Positions 11,807 through 21,709 of a stretch of 51,259 bases of DNA are shown in pieces. Location: the NCBI GenBank assembly GCA_965656375.1, contig CBFHKH010000001.1:79432-130690 (forward strand), in the 5' to 3' direction. The notes beneath the pieces are model-generated. The model worked only from the letters and a program-made list of their open reading frames with translations. It made no database searches and was not told the origin of the DNA. Numbering within the stretch: the stretch's first letter is position 1; each line of letters starts with the position of its first letter. The position numbers and the translations under genes were made by a program. This DNA is from Minisyncoccia bacterium (GTDB lineage Bacteria; Patescibacteriota; Minisyncoccia; Phycocordibacterales; UBA9973).

Positions 11807-14107
11807 ATGAACAACGAGATTCCCCACAATAGAGACGTGACGTACTTCGGGCGGACTAATTTTCGCAGTACTAACAATGCGTTTGGTATCAAGCGTAGAG
11901 ATCGACGCCAGCATATGTACGTGCTCGGAAAATCAGGTACTGGTAAGTCTGTACTTCTCTCAAATCTCATTGTTCAAAATATAAACAACGGCGAAGGTGT
12001 CTGTGTGGTTGACCCGCACGGCGAGCTTGTCGAAGAAATCCTCCACCTCATTCCTGATCACAGAGCTAAAGATGTGATTTATTTCAATCCGGCTGATATT
12101 GACTACAATGTCGGATTTAATGTTATTGCGCTTGATGATCCAAAGTACAAGCACTTGGTGGCATCTGGTCTCATGGGAATATTCACCAAGATTTGGGCAA
12201 ATGCATGGAGTTCTCGTATGGAGTACATCCTAAACAATGCGATCCTCGCGCTTCTCGATACTCCGGGGACGACGCTCCTCGGTATTCCGCGTCTACTCGT
12301 CGACAAGGATTATCGTCAGATGATCATCGGTAACTTGAAGGACCCAGTGGTCAAAGCATTTTGGGTGCACGAATATGAACAATGGCGTGAACAATTCCGT
12401 AACGAAGCGATTGCTCCGATCCAAAACAAAGTCGGTCAATTCCTCTCGACTGCTATCATTCGTAACGTTGTCGGTCAATCAAAATCAACCATCGATATTT
12501 TCAAGATCATGAACGAAGGTAAGATCTTCCTCGTGAACGTTTCAAAGGGGCGCGTGGGTGAAGACAACTCTGCGTTGCTTGGAGGTATGATCATTACCAA
12601 GATCCAGCTTGCAGCCATGGAGCGTGTTCGTATTCCTGAAGATGAGCGTAAGGATTTTTATCTCTACGTCGACGAATTCCAAAACTTCGCGACTGATTCA
12701 TTTGCAAACATTCTCTCTGAAGCTCGTAAATATCGTTTGAACCTCATCATTGCCCACCAATACACGGCTCAGCTTTCAAATGAAAATGGTACTGCTGTTC
12801 GTGATGCGGTATTCGGTAACGTTGGTACGATGGTTATATTCCGCGTGGGTGCTGATGATGCAGAATTTATCGAAAAGGAATTCGAACCCGAATTCACTGC
12901 GCAGGATTTGGTGAATTTGCCGAACTACCACATCTATCTAAAGCTTATGATCGACGGAGTCACCAGCCGTCCATTCTCTGCAAGTACACTTCCTCCGATG
13001 AAGGTAGATCCATCAGCGGGAGTAAAGGAAAAGATTATCGAACTATCACGCTCGATCTATGCGCGTCCACGCGAAGAAGTTGAAGCAGAAATCTCAAGGT
13101 GGAGCGGTACACTTCAGACAGTTGAAGGCGAGGCGAAATATAAAGCTGATTGTTCGAATTGCGGTAAATCAACTATGGTCCCATTCGAACCAAAAGAGGG
13201 CAGACCGATATATTGTAAGGACTGCATGTTCAAGATAAAGTCAGGCGAGCTCAAGCCACAGACTGGATTCGTAGCATCAAGATCTGCTCGCCAAGAGGAG
13301 AAGAATTCAACTGCACCTCTTTCTGCCCTCGGAATTGAGTTCCCAAGCGCAGCGACTGATACTCCTCCGCAAACTCCGAGAGCGTTCGAATCACGACCGC
13401 AACAGCGATCTTTTCCACCGAGAAATCCAGGAGTACAATCTCAAGCTCCAAATGGAAATCAACCACCACGTGCGCCAGGACAGTCGCAGAATACGAGTGG
13501 GTACAAACCGATAGAACGCAGACATTCTGGACCATCGCCACTCTTGAAGGGGTTGCTTGAAAAAATTGGGATAGATGATAAAAAATCAGAGAAGAACGCA
13601 GATGTTGTAGAAGTTGTAAAAACCCCTACACCTCCTCCAGTTTCACTCTCTACGCTCAAGAAGCCTGATACGACTACTATTCACAATCTCCCCCCTACAC
13701 CGACGCCGACAAAGGAAGCATCAGAAGAGAAGAAAGCATCACTCAAAGATCTACTTGCGAAAGTAACTCCACAACAGCTAAAAGTAGAGGAAAAGAAAGA
13801 AGTACCTGTTATTCCTACACCGACACTGCACAAGGAAGAGTCAAAACCACAGATAGTAAAAGAACCTGAAACTGCGAAAGTTCCTGTAGCTCCTATCCCT
13901 GTGACACCTGTTGTCCCTCATGTAATGAAACCAGTGGTAGAGGAACCAAAAGTTGAGCAAAAGGCAGAGGTAAAACCCGAAATAAAGGTAGAACCAAAAC
14001 CTGAGCCAAAAAAGGAAGAACCCGTACACGCACAGACTGATCAATGGCAGAAAAAGAAACCACAGAAAGAAGTACCTGAAGATGTCTTAAGAAAAGTCCT
14101 CGAATAG
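11807..14107 (+). CDS. VirD4/TraG-like P-loop ATPase with a CxxC-x17-CxxC zinc ribbon and a low-complexity P/K/E tail
   Basis: GKSGTGKS, DPHGE, LYVDEFQNF, EARKY, then CSNC-x17-CKDC and a Pro/Lys/Glu-rich C-terminus. Confidence 0.85.
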   Translation: MNNEIPHNRDVTYFGRTNFRSTNNAFGIKRRDRRQHMYVLGKSGTGKSVLLSNLIVQNINNGEGVCVVDPHGELVEEILHLIPDHRAKDVIYFNPADIDYNVGFNVIALDDPKYKHLVASGLMGIFTKIWANAWSSRMEYILNNAILALLDTPGTTLLGIPRLLVDKDYRQMIIGNLKDPVVKAFWVHEYEQWREQFRNEAIAPIQNKVGQFLSTAIIRNVVGQSKSTIDIFKIMNEGKIFLVNVSKGRVGEDNSALLGGMIITKIQLAAMERVRIPEDERKDFYLYVDEFQNFATDSFANILSEARKYRLNLIIAHQYTAQLSNENGTAVRDAVFGNVGTMVIFRVGADDAEFIEKEFEPEFTAQDLVNLPNYHIYLKLMIDGVTSRPFSASTLPPMKVDPSAGVKEKIIELSRSIYARPREEVEAEISRWSGTLQTVEGEAKYKADCSNCGKSTMVPFEPKEGRPIYCKDCMFKIKSGELKPQTGFVASRSARQEEKNSTAPLSALGIEFPSAATDTPPQTPRAFESRPQQRSFPPRNPGVQSQAPNGNQPPRAPGQSQNTSGYKPIERRHSGPSPLLKGLLEKIGIDDKKSEKNADVVEVVKTPTPPPVSLSTLKKPDTTTIHNLPPTPTPTKEASEEKKASLKDLLAKVTPQQLKVEEKKEVPVIPTPTLHKEESKPQIVKEPETAKVPVAPIPVTPVVPHVMKPVVEEPKVEQKAEVKPEIKVEPKPEPKKEEPVHAQTDQWQKKKPQKEVPEDVLRKVLE

Positions 14108-14146
14108 TTTATGAAGAATTTATCTTCGTTATCCTAAGATAAATTC

Positions 14147-15562
14147 ATGATGATAAAAAGAATACTATATTTTTGTGCCACTTTTATTATGGTGTTTACC
14201 GGGTGGACGCATTTTGCGATGGCGGGGTTTGAAATTACAGAGATCATGTATGATCTCGAAGGGACTGATACAAACCGTGAGTGGATAGAGGTAAAAAATA
14301 CAGGTACGGATGCAGCTGATCTTTCGAAGTGGTTTTTCTTTTCAGACAATACAAAGCACACACTTGCTGCGCAAGGTTCCGCTTCTGTGCCACCAGGTGG
14401 ATATGCAATCATAGCCCAAAGTGCTTCACATTTCAGAACTGATTGGCCAAATTTTGCTGGGCTACTCTTTGATAGCAGTTGGACTGGCTTTAGTAACGAA
14501 GAAGGAGAAACAATTGGACTCAAAGATACAAATCTAGCCTTAGTGAGTTCAGTGACATTTACAAACACCCTTGGAGCTTCTGGTGATGGGAATTCTTTAC
14601 AAAAATTGAATAGCTCTTGGGTGGCAGGAATGCCTACGCCAGGTGCAGATAATCAAGGTGGAAGCGAAGTTGGCGATGAAAATAATGAAACTGCAACTTC
14701 TGGTGGAACTACTACAAAGAAAAAGAAAGAAATTGAAATTCCAAAGATTATAACGGACATTATTATTAAAAACCAAACTGTCTTTGCAAAAATTCCGCTC
14801 GAAATCGACTCAGTCACACGAGGTTACGAAGGGGAGACTCTTCGCATGGGGCGTTTTGCCTGGAACTTTGGTGATGGAACGATAAAAACAGAGGCAGAAC
14901 ATAATCTATTTGAGCATGTGTATGAATATCCTGGTGAGTATGTCGTTACGTTGTCGTATTACCGAGCATGGACCGGCAACATAATTGAAGCGACTGATCG
15001 GATCACCGTTAAAGTTATTCCACTCGGGATTGCTATCTCTGCTATTGGTACTGATATTGATCCATATGTCGAGATTGAGAATACCTCTACATTTGAAGTT
15101 GATTTTTCTCGATGGATACTTCAAGGAATTGCGAATTCATTTACTGTACCTGAAGGTACCATTATTTTGCCAAATCAAAAACTGAGATTCTCTGGCAAGG
15201 CAACTGGTCTCTCCATTCTAGATGTAAAATCTATTCTTTTAGAAAATACTGACAAACAAGTTGTTGCCTCATATCGTTCTACGTATAACCCGACTTCTAG
15301 CGGTAGCTCTCTCTTTAAGGGAGGACCTACATCTTTAAATGTAAAAAAAGCAGAGGCAGCTTCGACTATTGACCTTAATGTTCTAGGGGCAAGTGCATCT
15401 GGTAGTCAGAGAGAAGATATTAATGGACCACTTCTTGCATGGGGAGGAGTTACGGGTGTGATAATTTTGGGTCTTGTAAGTGTAGTTTTAATGCGTCGCA
15501 AGAATGCAAACGATAAGGCGGAGAAAGGAATACACGAAAGCGACATAACGATAGTTGAATAA
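14147..15562 (+). CDS. Surface protein: signal peptide, lamin-tail domain, PKD domain, C-terminal TM anchor
   Basis: FEITEIMYD...EWIEVKN (LTD-like), WNFGDG...HVYEYPGEYVVTL (PKD), and a hydrophobic C-terminal helix followed by RRK. Confidence 0.75.
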   Translation: MMIKRILYFCATFIMVFTGWTHFAMAGFEITEIMYDLEGTDTNREWIEVKNTGTDAADLSKWFFFSDNTKHTLAAQGSASVPPGGYAIIAQSASHFRTDWPNFAGLLFDSSWTGFSNEEGETIGLKDTNLALVSSVTFTNTLGASGDGNSLQKLNSSWVAGMPTPGADNQGGSEVGDENNETATSGGTTTKKKKEIEIPKIITDIIIKNQTVFAKIPLEIDSVTRGYEGETLRMGRFAWNFGDGTIKTEAEHNLFEHVYEYPGEYVVTLSYYRAWTGNIIEATDRITVKVIPLGIAISAIGTDIDPYVEIENTSTFEVDFSRWILQGIANSFTVPEGTIILPNQKLRFSGKATGLSILDVKSILLENTDKQVVASYRSTYNPTSSGSSLFKGGPTSLNVKKAEAASTIDLNVLGASASGSQREDINGPLLAWGGVTGVIILGLVSVVLMRRKNANDKAEKGIHESDITIVE

Positions 15563-16717: not shown

Positions 16718-17296
16718 TTACTGAATCTTTTCTAGCGCTTTTGGGATTTTATTAAAATCTTTTATGAGGGTTTCGCGCATGCCGCCGTTGTAGAGCGCTG
16801 CAGCTGGATGGTAGAGAGGAAGGAACGCTTGTTTCTTATCGAGTTCTGGAATATTTTTGATCAAGAGTTTACCATGGATATCTCCGATTTTTTCCGTAGG
16901 GAAGAATCGCCCCATGGAGTGTCGTCCGAGGAAGACGATGAGCTTCGGCTGTATTATTTTGAGTTCACTTATAAGCCATTCATTACATGCTGCTTTTTCT
17001 TCGGGTAACGGATCCCGATTGTTTGGCGGACGATATTTAACGATGTTAGTTATATAGATATCTTCGCGTTTCATTTTTATATTCTCAAGCATCTCTGCTA
17101 AGAATTTTCCACCCGCACCTATAAATGGTTTACCTTGCAGGTCTTCATTTTTCCCAGGTGCCTCACCAATAAAAACAATATCAGTATTTGCATTTCCATC
17201 ACCAAAGACGGCCTGTGTTGCAGTTTTTTTCAATTCACACATACAGTGTTCCTGCCAGTACGCATTCAATTCATCAAGCTGTTGTCGCTTTGTCAT
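16718..17296 (-). CDS. Uracil-DNA glycosylase, family 4-like
   Basis: FIGEAPG, GKPFIG, TNIVKYRPP.NRDP and YHPAA motifs. Confidence 0.9.
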   Translation of the reverse strand: MTKRQQLDELNAYWQEHCMCELKKTATQAVFGDGNANTDIVFIGEAPGKNEDLQGKPFIGAGGKFLAEMLENIKMKREDIYITNIVKYRPPNNRDPLPEEKAACNEWLISELKIIQPKLIVFLGRHSMGRFFPTEKIGDIHGKLLIKNIPELDKKQAFLPLYHPAAALYNGGMRETLIKDFNKIPKALEKIQ

Positions 17297-18807
17297 TATT
17301 TCAATATTGTAATCTCTGCACCGATAGAGTTCAAGCGCATTGCTACATCTTCGTAGCCACGGCTGATCATGTATACGTTACGCAATATTGATGTGCCTTC
17401 AGCGGCAAGCATAGAGATAAGGATCACCATAGAAGGACGAAGTGCCGGTGGGCAGACGACTTGGGCAGCTTTGAGCGGTGTTCCGCCAGTTACATAGATG
17501 CGGTGCGGATCAGCAAGAGTGACACTTGCTCCTAATCTATTGAGTTCAGTTGCGTATATTGCACGGTTCTCGTAGAACCAATCGTGGATGAGGGTCGTAC
17601 CAGTAGCGCGTACTGCGATAGGGACGAAGAAGGGAAGATTGTCTATATTTATACCTGGATAGGTATTTGCATGGATCTTGTCGTGAAGGGCTTTGAATGT
17701 ACTTGGCAATATTTCTATATCGACGAGTTTTGTCTTTTCGTTTTTGGATACGTACTTGTTAAGTATTTTATATTTAAGGCCCATTTTCTTGAGCTTGTAG
17801 AGTTCGAGTGTGAGGAAGTCTATCGGGCAGCGATTGATAGTGAGCGTGGAGTCAGTCGCGATCGCAGCTGATATAAACATCATCGATTCGATCGGATCTT
17901 CACTATTGTGATACTCGACATCCATATTGATATCTTTCACACCTTCGACGACAAGTGTACCAGTTCCAATGCCATCAATCTTCACACCAAGCTTTTGGAG
18001 GAAGAAGCAGATTTCCTGAACCATGTAGTTACCACTTGCACATTCGATCGTAGTTGCCCCTTCGATCTTTGCTGCAGCCATGAGTATATTTTCGCATGCA
18101 GTATCACCAGCTTCATACATGACGATGTCAGCAGATTTGAGTGTATTTACAGTTATATCATAGGTAGTATTTGTAGTTTTTACTTTAACTCCGATCTCAT
18201 CGAGCGCATATCGATGTGCAGAAATAGTGCGCTTACCTAGGTTGCATCCTTGTGCGTGGGGAATTGAGAATGAAGGCAACAAGTGCACGAGTGGGCCCAT
18301 GAGCATGATGATAGATCGCGTTCTGATCGCTGATTGAACGTTCAAGTTTTCTAGCTTGAGCTTCTTTGGTGGAACTACTTCTACACAATTCTGACTTGTC
18401 CATGTGATTTTGACACCAATGCTCTCGAGGATCTCTATGACTCGATATACTTCCTCGATTCGCGCGATGCCATGAAGTGTTGTTTTTCCTTTGTTGAGGA
18501 GTGTTGCGCAGAGAAGCCCCACAGATCCATTCTTTGAATAGCTTGTCGTTATAGATCCATGTAGCTTTTTACCTCCGACGATTTGAAAATCAATAGAGTC
18601 ATTGATAGCTACTATTTGGTGATCAAGAACGGTGCTGATTTTTGAGAGGAGTTCAGTCGTAAAATTTTGTTCACCCTTTTCCATGCGGGCGACAGCGCTC
18701 TGAGAAGTACCAAGCTCTTTGGCAAAGGCTCCTTGGGTAAGCTTCCTACGCTCACGAAGTTCCTTGATAAAAAAGCCTATTTTCTGCTGATCTGATTGTT
18801 TTTTCAT
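17296..18807 (-). CDS. murA: UDP-N-acetylglucosamine 1-carboxyvinyltransferase with an N-terminal XRE helix-turn-helix
   Basis: N-terminal LRERRKLTQGAFAKELGTSQSAVARME (XRE HTH), then an EPT fold with SKN, GCNLGKR (catalytic Cys loop) and DPH. Confidence 0.9.
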   Translation of the reverse strand: MKKQSDQQKIGFFIKELRERRKLTQGAFAKELGTSQSAVARMEKGEQNFTTELLSKISTVLDHQIVAINDSIDFQIVGGKKLHGSITTSYSKNGSVGLLCATLLNKGKTTLHGIARIEEVYRVIEILESIGVKITWTSQNCVEVVPPKKLKLENLNVQSAIRTRSIIMLMGPLVHLLPSFSIPHAQGCNLGKRTISAHRYALDEIGVKVKTTNTTYDITVNTLKSADIVMYEAGDTACENILMAAAKIEGATTIECASGNYMVQEICFFLQKLGVKIDGIGTGTLVVEGVKDINMDVEYHNSEDPIESMMFISAAIATDSTLTINRCPIDFLTLELYKLKKMGLKYKILNKYVSKNEKTKLVDIEILPSTFKALHDKIHANTYPGINIDNLPFFVPIAVRATGTTLIHDWFYENRAIYATELNRLGASVTLADPHRIYVTGGTPLKAAQVVCPPALRPSMVILISMLAAEGTSILRNVYMISRGYEDVAMRLNSIGAEITILK

Positions 18808-18817
18808 AGATTTGAAG

Positions 18818-18841
18818 ATTATATATCATATGTGATATAAT
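18818..18841. promoter_or_regulatory. Back-to-back -10 elements for murA and murB overlapping the palindrome TATATCA-N4-TGATATA
   Basis: TATAAT on the minus strand at 18818-18823, TGaTATAAT on the plus strand at 18833-18841, palindrome at 18822-18839. Confidence 0.65.
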
Positions 18842-18847
18842 GGCAAT

Positions 18848-19870
18848 ATGTTAGAAATACGGGAGAATGTGGAGATAAAAGACTACTCAACACTGAAAGT
18901 TGGGGGGCAATTTCGCTATTTTATAGAACTTACAGATAAAAATATGCTCAGAGATGTATATACATTTGCACAAGAAAAAAATCTTCCTGTATTTGTGCTT
19001 GGTGGTGGATCGAATCTTGTTTTTCCAGATGGAGTACTAGAGCGAGTAGTTCTCAAGATCAATCTTCTGGGTTTTGAAGTGATAGATGAGACAACTTCAA
19101 TTACCAGTATAAAAATTGCTGCAGGTGAGAATTGGGACTCAGTGGTAGAACGCACAGTGGCGATGGATCTCTCGGGTATTGAAGCTATGTCTGCAATCCC
19201 GGGTACCACAGGAGCAACTCCTGTTCAGAATGTGGGTGCGTATGGACAAGAAATTAAAGATACTCTTACTGAGGTCGAAGTATTTGATACAAAAGATATG
19301 AGTTTTAAAGTTCTATCGAACGCTGATTGTAAATTTAGATATCGAGATAGTATCTTTAAAAGCGATGCAAAAGGCAGATATATCGTTACATCTGTTACAC
19401 TCGCGCTTTCAAAAGAAAAACCTTCTCTACCGAATTATCCTGGAGTCAAAAAGTATTTTTCTGAGAAAAATATAGATGACCCAACGCTTCTCCAAATTCG
19501 TGAAGCGATTATTGATATCCGAAAGAACAAACTGCCTGATCCGAAAGTGATTCCAAGTGTCGGGTCGTTCTTCAAGAATACAATTGTACTTCAAACTGTT
19601 GCCAATAGTTTGAAGGATGAATATCCTAACATGACAGTATTTCCAGTTAATGACAAAGAGACAAAAGTACCATCTGGATTCCTGATTGAAACTGCGGGAC
19701 TCAAGGGCAAGAGTTTTGGAACCATTTCCTCGTATACTCATAATGCGATGGTTCTCGTGAATAATGGAGGGGCTACTCGCTCTGATGTTGAACAGGTACG
19801 AGATGAGATTATAAAAGTTATATCTGATAAATTCGGCATTACCCTCGAAACAGAACCCGAGTTTGTATAA
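18848..19870 (+). CDS. murB: UDP-N-acetylmuramate dehydrogenase
   Basis: LGGGSNL, IPGTTGATPVQNVGAYG, FRYRDSIFK, GSFFKN, LETEP. Confidence 0.95.
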   Translation: MLEIRENVEIKDYSTLKVGGQFRYFIELTDKNMLRDVYTFAQEKNLPVFVLGGGSNLVFPDGVLERVVLKINLLGFEVIDETTSITSIKIAAGENWDSVVERTVAMDLSGIEAMSAIPGTTGATPVQNVGAYGQEIKDTLTEVEVFDTKDMSFKVLSNADCKFRYRDSIFKSDAKGRYIVTSVTLALSKEKPSLPNYPGVKKYFSEKNIDDPTLLQIREAIIDIRKNKLPDPKVIPSVGSFFKNTIVLQTVANSLKDEYPNMTVFPVNDKETKVPSGFLIETAGLKGKSFGTISSYTHNAMVLVNNGGATRSDVEQVRDEIIKVISDKFGITLETEPEFV

Positions 19871-19871
19871 A

Positions 19872-20438
19872 TTACTCTTTCCAAAGATTTAGATCTTTCT
19901 TGAGCTTATCAACGTTCTTTGAGATTCTTATTACATGCTTTGTGTAGCCTTTATGGAAGACTTTTCGTATTTGAGGTTCATATCCTAATCTTTGTAAACT
20001 TTTAAAGTAATCAAAGGCAAGTTTTTCAATGATTGTTGTGAAGTTAATCATTGAATATCCTCTATCTTTATAAATCGATCCATCAGTTTGAATCAATCCT
20101 CGTAGACATTCTTTGAGATATATTCTATTTTCTAATATCCAGATAGGGATTGAAATATTCTGATTTGCCTTAGACCCTTCTTTTGCTTTCCACTCTAAAA
20201 TATTTTCAAGTTCATTTGAATAAACTGAGATATCAATACAACCATCTTTCCTTATAACTTCTGCAATTTTATTTTTTGGAAAAAGAATTCTTAATGACTC
20301 TTTGATACATTCTTTAAGTTTCGGGTATTTATTATCACATGTAACACGGAGTCGAACTGCGCGTCCATTAGGATTTGATAGATTTCCATCTCCAATTGCT
20401 ATACCTGTTATGTATGCTAAAAGTTTTTTATTTTTCAA
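19872..20438 (-). CDS. Free-standing two-motif LAGLIDADG homing-endonuclease-like protein
   Basis: LAYITGIAIGDG and CLRGLIQTDGS motifs. The track start (20480) lies inside the tRNA, so the TTG at 20438 is more plausible. Confidence 0.75.
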   Translation of the reverse strand: MKNKKLLAYITGIAIGDGNLSNPNGRAVRLRVTCDNKYPKLKECIKESLRILFPKNKIAEVIRKDGCIDISVYSNELENILEWKAKEGSKANQNISIPIWILENRIYLKECLRGLIQTDGSIYKDRGYSMINFTTIIEKLAFDYFKSLQRLGYEPQIRKVFHKGYTKHVIRISKNVDKLKKDLNLWKE

Positions 20439-20439
20439 G

Positions 20440-20521
20440 TGCCGGAGGGGAGACTTGAACTCCCAAGCCTTGCGGCGCACGATTTTGAGTCGTGTACGTA
20501 TACCAATTCCGTCACTCCGGC
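20440..20521 (-). tRNA. trnL: tRNA-Leu (CAA)
   Basis: GCCGGAG/CTCCGGC acceptor stem, CACGA-CTCAAAA-TCGTG anticodon arm, long variable arm, TTCAAGT T-loop; CCA not encoded. Confidence 0.95.
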
Positions 20522-20575: not shown

Positions 20576-21709
20576 ATGAAAAGCTTGCCCTTCTCCTATA
20601 TTGAACTCTCAAAAAATAACTTGATACATAATATCAAGCAGTTTAGACGTATTGTAAAACGAGGGACGAAGATCGCAGCGGTAGTGAAGGCAAATGCATA
20701 TGGTCATGGTGATGTAGAGGTAGTAAAGATCCTCAGTCCATTTGTGGATTATTTCCAGATCAATAGTGTAGAAGAACTAGAGAAAGTACGATCTCATACT
20801 CGGAAGCCCATACTCACCCTCGGATACGTAGGGAAGAATGATATTGCTCATGCTATCAAGCTTGGTTGTATTCTTACGGTATTTGATCTACACCATGCAC
20901 TTTTAATAAATACAGTTTCTGAGAAATTAAAAATAAAACAAAAGGTTCATATATCTATTGATGCGCATTTAGGGCGTGAGGGAGTATTGCCATACCAAAT
21001 TCCACTATTTATACAGGAGATCAAGAAGATGAAGAATCTATCTGTTGATGGTGTGTATGCACACTTTGCCAATATCGAGGATACTACAGATTTCACCTAT
21101 GCATCAAAGCAAATTAAAGCATATGAAGAAGCGGTTCAATTATTCAAAGAAAGCGGTTACAAGAATATCAAGACTCATATTTCTGCAACATCAGGAGTTC
21201 TCGCATATGAAAAATGGAAAGGTCTTCATTCGATTGTTCGAGTCGGTGTTGGTATCTATGGTATGTGGCCGAGCGATGAATTAAGAATGATATGGAAGAA
21301 AAAGATCGAACTGAAACCTGTCATGCGATATGTTACCCATGTCGCAGAAATTAAAACTCTTCCAGTCGGTGAATCTATTGGATATGGCACTTCGTATACA
21401 ACTCGAAAGGATGTGACGATTGCTGTCATTCCGCAAGGGTACTCAAATGGTATAAGCAGACTCTCATCAAATAATGGCGCTGTGCTCATTGGGGGGAAAC
21501 GTGCTCCGATCCTTGGTAGAGTTGCTATGAATATGTTTGTTGTTGATGTGACGGGAATCAAGGGAGTAAAGCCAGAAAATGAAGTAGTGGTACTCGGAAC
21601 CCAAAAAGGGGAGACTATCACCGCGGAGGCAATAGCCAAGGAAACACAGACTATAAACTATGAAATAACTACCCGAATGAGCGCATTATTGCCGAGAATT
21701 ATCAGATAG
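20576..21709 (+). CDS. alr: Alanine racemase
   Basis: AVVKANAYGHG PLP-lysine motif, IGYG, GRVAMN, INYEI. Confidence 0.95.
   Translation: MKSLPFSYIELSKNNLIHNIKQFRRIVKRGTKIAAVVKANAYGHGDVEVVKILSPFVDYFQINSVEELEKVRSHTRKPILTLGYVGKNDIAHAIKLGCILTVFDLHHALLINTVSEKLKIKQKVHISIDAHLGREGVLPYQIPLFIQEIKKMKNLSVDGVYAHFANIEDTTDFTYASKQIKAYEEAVQLFKESGYKNIKTHISATSGVLAYEKWKGLHSIVRVGVGIYGMWPSDELRMIWKKKIELKPVMRYVTHVAEIKTLPVGESIGYGTSYTTRKDVTIAVIPQGYSNGISRLSSNNGAVLIGGKRAPILGRVAMNMFVVDVTGIKGVKPENEVVVLGTQKGETITAEAIAKETQTINYEITTRMSALLPRIIR

Follow-up and report, generated by a model that had tools for sequence, protein, structure and literature searches.

The window analysed here is a stretch of 51,259 nucleotides from a Minisyncoccia bacterium of the Patescibacteriota (assembly GCA_965656375.1, contig CBFHKH010000001.1, positions 79,432 to 130,690; C1:79432-130690 of genome G000 in our set). 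It carries two divergent genes for the synthesis of peptidoglycan precursors. One encodes HTH-MurA, a fusion of an XRE-type helix-turn-helix (HTH) with a MurA domain, and the other encodes MurB. As the original prediction had described, the HTH is N-terminal, the catalytic Cys loop of MurA is kept (GC188NLGKR193), and the starts of the two genes are separated by exactly 40 nt (18808-18847), in which two opposed TATAAT boxes are overlapped by the dyad TATATCA-N4-TGATATA. This dyad is a candidate operator of the HTH-MurA dimer. The positions of the features are collected in Table 1.

Table 1. Features of the murA-murB locus, in coordinates of the window.
Feature	Position	Strand	Details
18-bp dyad TATATCA-TATG-TGATATA, candidate operator of the HTH-MurA dimer	18822-18839	.	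sequence, conservation
murA promoter	18818-18846	-	-35 TTGCCA (18846-18841), 17-nt spacer, -10 TATAAT (18823-18818); 11/12
murB promoter	18812-18841	+	-35 TTGAAG (18812-18817), 18-nt spacer, TATAAT (18836-18841); 10/12
HTH-MurA coding sequence (P0001), XRE-HTH and MurA fusion	17296-18807	-	503 aa, translation of a stop-free open reading frame
XRE-type HTH, aa 14-62	18622-18768	-	Pfam HTH_3
Predicted recognition helix of HTH-MurA, aa 36-43	18679-18702	-	model and alignment
MurA domain, aa 74-501	17305-18588	-	profile and solved-structure alignment
C188 codon of HTH-MurA	18244-18246	-	
murB (P0002), UDP-N-acetylmuramate dehydrogenase, divergent from murA	18848-19870	+	340 aa

The promoter scan showed that both -10 boxes are covered by the dyad, one arm per box. 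The -10 of murB is extended by an upstream TG (TGATATAAT, 18833-41) and is separated from the ATG at 18848 by 6 nt, which implies that the murB mRNA is leaderless. The murA start codon follows 10 nt after its -10, so that the leader is only about 4 nt long. We surveyed the motif TGnTATAnT across the whole genome, up to 60 nt upstream of rough gene calls. It peaks sharply at a distance of exactly 6 nt from the start codon (37 genes), and a further 24 genes have it at 7 to 9 nt. Judging by this peak, leaderless transcription is the local norm, to which murB and (nearly) murA conform. When the window was searched at one mismatch or fewer, the dyad was matched once only, with 0.03 matches expected from shuffles. 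The perfect dyad also occurs once only in the 871-kb genome. No second operator was found in this genome, and the near-matches (12-13/14) were single promoter half-sites beside unrelated genes.

Both domains are present in all of the 120 best database matches of HTH-MurA (75-91% identity), of which the few with a named source are called Patescibacteria/Paceibacterota. We compared murA genes among 251 genomes of the same order and sorted them into fused genes (class A), genes of the same MurA clade that lack the HTH (class B, 52-74% identity) and genes for canonical MurA (class C, 27-34% identity). For 129 loci, the 250 nt upstream of murA were scored against TATAKCA-N4-TGMTATA, and the dyad was called present at 13 or more of the 14 specified bases. 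It was found just upstream of murA in 72 of 82 fused loci (47 scoring 14/14 and 25 scoring 13/14), versus 0 of 26 class B loci and 0 of 21 class C loci, where the top scores were 12 and 11, respectively. Among loci fetched after the motif had been fixed, the dyad was present in 46/56 fused loci versus 0/24. The original prediction had proposed looking for the dyad before other XRE-murA genes and for its absence where murA lacks an HTH, and both turned out that way. The central 4 bp of the dyad (YATR) are conserved too. At the level of whole genomes, 46 of 76 with the fusion contain a perfect dyad, versus 14 of 174 others, in which the central 4 bp are mostly unrelated, and a reversed control pattern matched 5 of the 251 genomes. 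The order-wide genome tallies include one unpublished genome (G259), which gave no locus; dropping it changes nothing.

A tree of the MurA domain places HTH-less forms at scattered positions within the fused clade. The presence of the HTH changes 13 times on this tree, and well-supported branches force at least 8 of these events. Comparing phylogenetically independent pairs, we found dyad and HTH to go together in about 6.7 of 8, with no pair in the opposite direction (median p of the sign test, 0.016). The palindrome, which overlaps the -10 box of murA, is retained with the HTH and missing without it. A split gene, with the HTH as a free-standing copy, was considered for five HTH-less genomes and rejected: no such copy was found in three of them, and only generic XRE proteins (35-44% identity) in the other two.

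The HTH of HTH-MurA was detected by Pfam as HTH_3 (PF01381) with an E value of 1.7e-12 (47.6 bits, cut-off 23). An AlphaFold2 model (pLDDT, the predicted local confidence, 93.8) consists of a four-helix HTH, an 11-residue linker and a MurA fold; the helices of the head span residues 6-20, 25-32, 36-43 and 51-61 (pLDDT about 95). Invariant HTH positions in 63 fused proteins include R18, Q25, Q36, S37, R41, E43, G45, Q47 and N48, among which Q36, S37, R41 and E43 belong to the recognition helix. Of the 23 columns that are invariant over the full length of the fused-protein alignment, 9 lie in the head, which has about 60 residues and is under strong purifying selection. The model of the homodimer gave an ipSAE interface score of 0.52 (best of three controls, 0.00). 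This reaches a mark that was attained by 20 of 30 homodimers and 1 of 23 monomers of solved structure. The contacts agreed to at least 90% between runs, and pLDDT was at least 87. The modelled interface is symmetric and located within the MurA domain, where it includes residues 229-233, 333-341 and 432-436; through this domain HTH-MurA is predicted to dimerise.

Homologues from much farther away have the same arrangement. A protein from Nonomuraea, annotated as 'helix-turn-helix domain-containing protein / MurA', is 51% identical over its full length and has the same architecture; 11 nt before its ATG, within GC-rich DNA, stands the dyad ATCTCA-TATG-TGAGAT. Fused homologues with 39% and 30% identity have ATATCA-N4-TGATAT at the same place (dyads 11-20 nt before the ATG). 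Half-site changes across the distant loci are mirrored in both arms. Judging from these sequences, the pairing of dyad and HTH is old and common to Patescibacteria and Actinomycetota. On two metagenome contigs with P0129 (L156 and L157), the gene for the 39%-identical HTH-MurA, with its dyad, diverges from a plain MurA-MurB pair, and a D-Ala-D-Ala ligase fusion comes after it. The fused copy is a second MurA in that lineage.

The dyad could instead be the operator of a separate regulator, with the HTH of MurA serving nucleoid tethering, another DNA target or protein contacts. Other small XRE proteins are encoded in these genomes, and the tie between HTH and dyad is one of sequence comparison. 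We nevertheless regard a separate regulator as very improbable, since the dyad tracks the fused HTH over at least 8 independent changes, three of the five HTH-less genomes examined have no homologue of MurA's HTH at all, the DNA-contact positions of the HTH are invariant, and the pairing extends across Patescibacteria and Actinomycetota, which share few other regulators.

The serious rival to a dyad bound by HTH-MurA is that two extended -10 elements (TGATATAAT on each strand), set back to back for divergent leaderless genes, yield the palindrome as a mere by-product, to which the HTH of MurA would be irrelevant. Each arm is indeed a perfect extended -10, the commonest promoter layout of this genome has TGnTATAnT at 6 nt before the start codon, and both promoters score 10-11 of 12. 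We think this very improbable, however, because the left arm does not depend on such a layout: the dyad is kept in fused loci where mreB lies divergent at 35-430 nt or where the upstream gene is co-directional (15 loci). HTH-less loci with the same neighbours lack the dyad; those with divergent mreB retain only the murA-proximal TGCTATAAT, and one in which murB is divergent over a 31-nt spacer (L040) has neither HTH nor dyad. Among the 31 short divergent spacers of the present genome, the dyad occurs between murA and murB only and the other 30 are without it, and the conserved central YATR is likewise not accounted for. As a general account, back-to-back promoters were therefore rejected. The arms double as -10 boxes in this window, yet this alone does not account for the symmetry.

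The MurA part of the fusion was matched by EPSP_synthase of Pfam over aa 78-488 (E 4e-40). HTH-MurA passed the cut-off of the MurA subfamily model NF006873 of NCBIfam (309.5 bits, cut-off 297) and missed the stricter equivalog cut-off of TIGR01072 (299 vs 392.7), and we therefore place it in a divergent MurA subfamily. Its Cys loop aligns to the PGGC-IG-R loop of solved MurA structures. In an alignment that included 62 fused homologues, K92, C188, R193, D304, R415 and R457 fall on catalytic positions of solved MurA enzymes. The window protein has the first five, which we take to be the equivalents of K22, C115, R120, D305 and R397 of E. coli MurA, and they are shared by 56-63 of the 63 fused homologues; the position of E. 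coli D369 is Ala. HTH-MurA is the sole EPSP/MurA-family gene (one PF00275 match) of the genome, which is 97.9% complete and also encodes four Mur ligases and MraY besides MurB and alanine racemase. Because it is the only MurA beside an otherwise present precursor pathway, HTH-MurA should, from its gene context, be the working MurA enzyme of this genome. That it binds the dyad mainly as a sensor-regulator that has lost catalysis, or as an activator, is the least credible of the alternatives: the missed equivalog cut-off, the Ala at D369 and the fused copy beside a plain MurA on L156, which suggests that some fused copies may be regulatory paralogues, speak for it, but this MurA has no substitute in the genome, all main catalytic residues are kept, and a site on -10 boxes is the position of a repressor.

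In our view, HTH-MurA probably works as an enzyme and at the same time represses its own gene and murB. In the proposed mechanism, two MurA domains would dimerise and thereby place two HTH heads on the half-sites TATATCA and TGATATA. In this genus, each half-site would be the extended -10 of one of two overlapping, back-to-back and (nearly) leaderless promoters. Because the dyad covers both -10 boxes, one bound dimer should block both genes, excluding RNA polymerase from murA and murB together. We infer that the effect on the two genes is repression: when free HTH-MurA goes up, both genes would go down, which would make a one-protein homeostat of the first two committed steps of peptidoglycan precursor synthesis.

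Several observations weigh against HTH-MurA as a repressor. The case for this role rests wholly on comparison. About 10 of the 82 fused loci have weaker dyads (10-12/14), and without a second site the regulon in this genome would consist of murA and murB only. The HTH codons lie only 15-30 bp from the dyad, so that one deletion could remove both; because of this adjacency, part of their joint absence may reflect physical linkage and not function. A 12/14 remnant of the dyad in one locus (L028) looks more like decay after loss than like a single deletion. The half-site is also the general extended -10 consensus TGnTATAnT, and selection on promoter strength adds to the conservation of the murA-proximal arm. 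Finally, the dimer score may partly reflect memory of solved or crystal MurA oligomers.

Some relatives carry the site before other genes. Extra perfect sites stand 8 nt before murC-like ligase genes in two genomes, on long contigs and away from murA, and further perfect sites were found upstream of PF00144 genes, which resemble penicillin-binding proteins (PBPs) and beta-lactamases, in three genomes. These sites hint at a regulon. A separate murB site in G214 was not counted, as both contigs end in the same dyad and are probably one murA-murB locus broken by assembly.

An effect of the conformation (open/closed) or ligand binding of the MurA domain on the affinity for DNA is speculative. We hold only tentatively, and with more doubt than belief, that the MurA domain is a sensor whose open/closed state or tight 'dormant' complex with UDP-N-acetylmuramic acid (UDP-MurNAc) and phosphoenolpyruvate changes dimer geometry and operator affinity, such that precursor flux would set murA and murB transcription. 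If this were true, the murC and PBP-like genes of the relatives would likewise be set by precursor flux, and the fusion would be an ancient single-protein homeostat of the cell wall, shared by Patescibacteria and Actinomycetota, with the -10 boxes of leaderless promoters as its operators.

Like the enzyme-repressor fusions or 'trigger enzymes' BirA (biotin ligase and bio repressor), PutA (ribbon-helix-helix and proline dehydrogenase) and NadR of E. coli, HTH-MurA joins a metabolic enzyme and an N-terminal DNA-binding domain in one chain. Likewise, dimerisation through the enzyme body is predicted to unite the two heads, and like bioO between bioA and bioBFCD, the candidate operator is a palindrome over the divergent promoters of one pathway. 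Unlike these systems, the enzyme is a MurA, the head is of the XRE/Cro-C1 type, the targets are genes for cell-wall precursors, and the promoters are leaderless with half-sites that double as -10 elements. With 434 Cro/cI, SinR and HipB, HTH-MurA shares an HTH_3 head, a recognition helix that starts with Q-S and, at the promoter of its own gene, a dyad of 18 bp with arms of 7 bp; in contrast to them, its dimerisation or effector module is a full, essential enzyme of 430 aa and not a small oligomerisation domain. The closest known kind is thus the enzyme-repressor fusion, and an XRE head on an essential cell-wall enzyme would be new.

MurA catalyses the committed step of peptidoglycan synthesis and is the target of fosfomycin. 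Its known control includes proteolysis by ClpCP with ReoM/PrkA in Firmicutes and feedback inhibition by UDP-MurNAc. These act on the protein, by degradation or inhibition, whereas the control proposed for HTH-MurA is transcriptional and exerted by the enzyme itself. If MurA does read its own promoter, this would be a transcriptional control new to cell-wall synthesis. It would also be among the few regulatory circuits directly legible in the genomes of uncultured Patescibacteria, which are tiny and poor in regulators. The design would be economical, one 18-bp palindrome serving as two -10 elements and one candidate operator. The same type of protein occurs in culturable actinomycetes such as Nonomuraea, which makes the idea accessible to bench tests. 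In the literature searched, neither an HTH on MurA nor a regulatory role of MurA was described. Streptomyces possesses two genes for MurA (PMC12161575), in contrast to the present genome, where the fusion is the only MurA. The second gene, murA2 (SCO5998 / sven5810, vnz_28735), is a target of BldM-WhiI and DmdR1, and neither an HTH nor autoregulation of murA2 is mentioned in the three papers concerned (PMC4125116, PMC11005364, PMC12161575).

Variants of the dyad and its surroundings were seen at several places. In L003 and L005, which are from the same genus, the murB-murA spacer is enlarged to about 240 nt, and similarly to about 245 nt in L006. In L003 and L005 a longer inverted repeat (GGGACAAGTATT ... 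AATACTTGTCCC) surrounds the dyad and forms a long palindrome with the operator at its centre. G136, a fused-MurA genome of 0.6 Mb from the same order, has 20 perfect copies of the 18-bp dyad, which may represent either a large regulon or a short element that has dispersed. Two of these copies (L150:1501 and L150:1792) are 291 bp apart, with no longer direct repeat or long open reading frame around them. A canonical-looking dyad, TATATCATATGTGATATA, lies between genes for a PfkB kinase and a FAD-linked oxidase in G170 (C7:15507-15524, L151), a genome for which no MurA match is listed. Co-evolution of recognition-helix residue 35 (S/T) with the operator type (T/G at half-site position 5) was considered; a correlation can be seen but was not used as evidence, as it is mostly one phylogenetic split with two exceptions. 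In the present genome, another short divergent spacer (G000:C1:569707-569760) holds a perfect palindrome, CTAGCATA-GA-TATGCTAG, whose half-sites resemble the G-type murA operator of relatives and are spaced 2 bp wider.

The neighbouring genes in the window were also annotated. The MurB identity of the open reading frame at 18848-19870 was given by NF000755 (336 bits), together with FAD_binding_4 and MurB_C. A gene of the uracil-DNA glycosylase family (16718-17296, minus strand) overlaps the murA stop codon by one base; because of this overlap it is probably co-transcribed with murA and hence under the same candidate operator. Between murB and the alanine racemase gene (20576-21709) lies an open reading frame of 202 aa on the minus strand (19872-20480) with a LAGLIDADG-like domain (PF14528, E 1e-10), possibly the remnant of a free-standing homing endonuclease. 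On the plus strand, positions 11807-15562 encode a coupling ATPase that resembles TrwB/TraG and has a zinc-finger domain; after it comes a lamin-tail/PKD surface protein.

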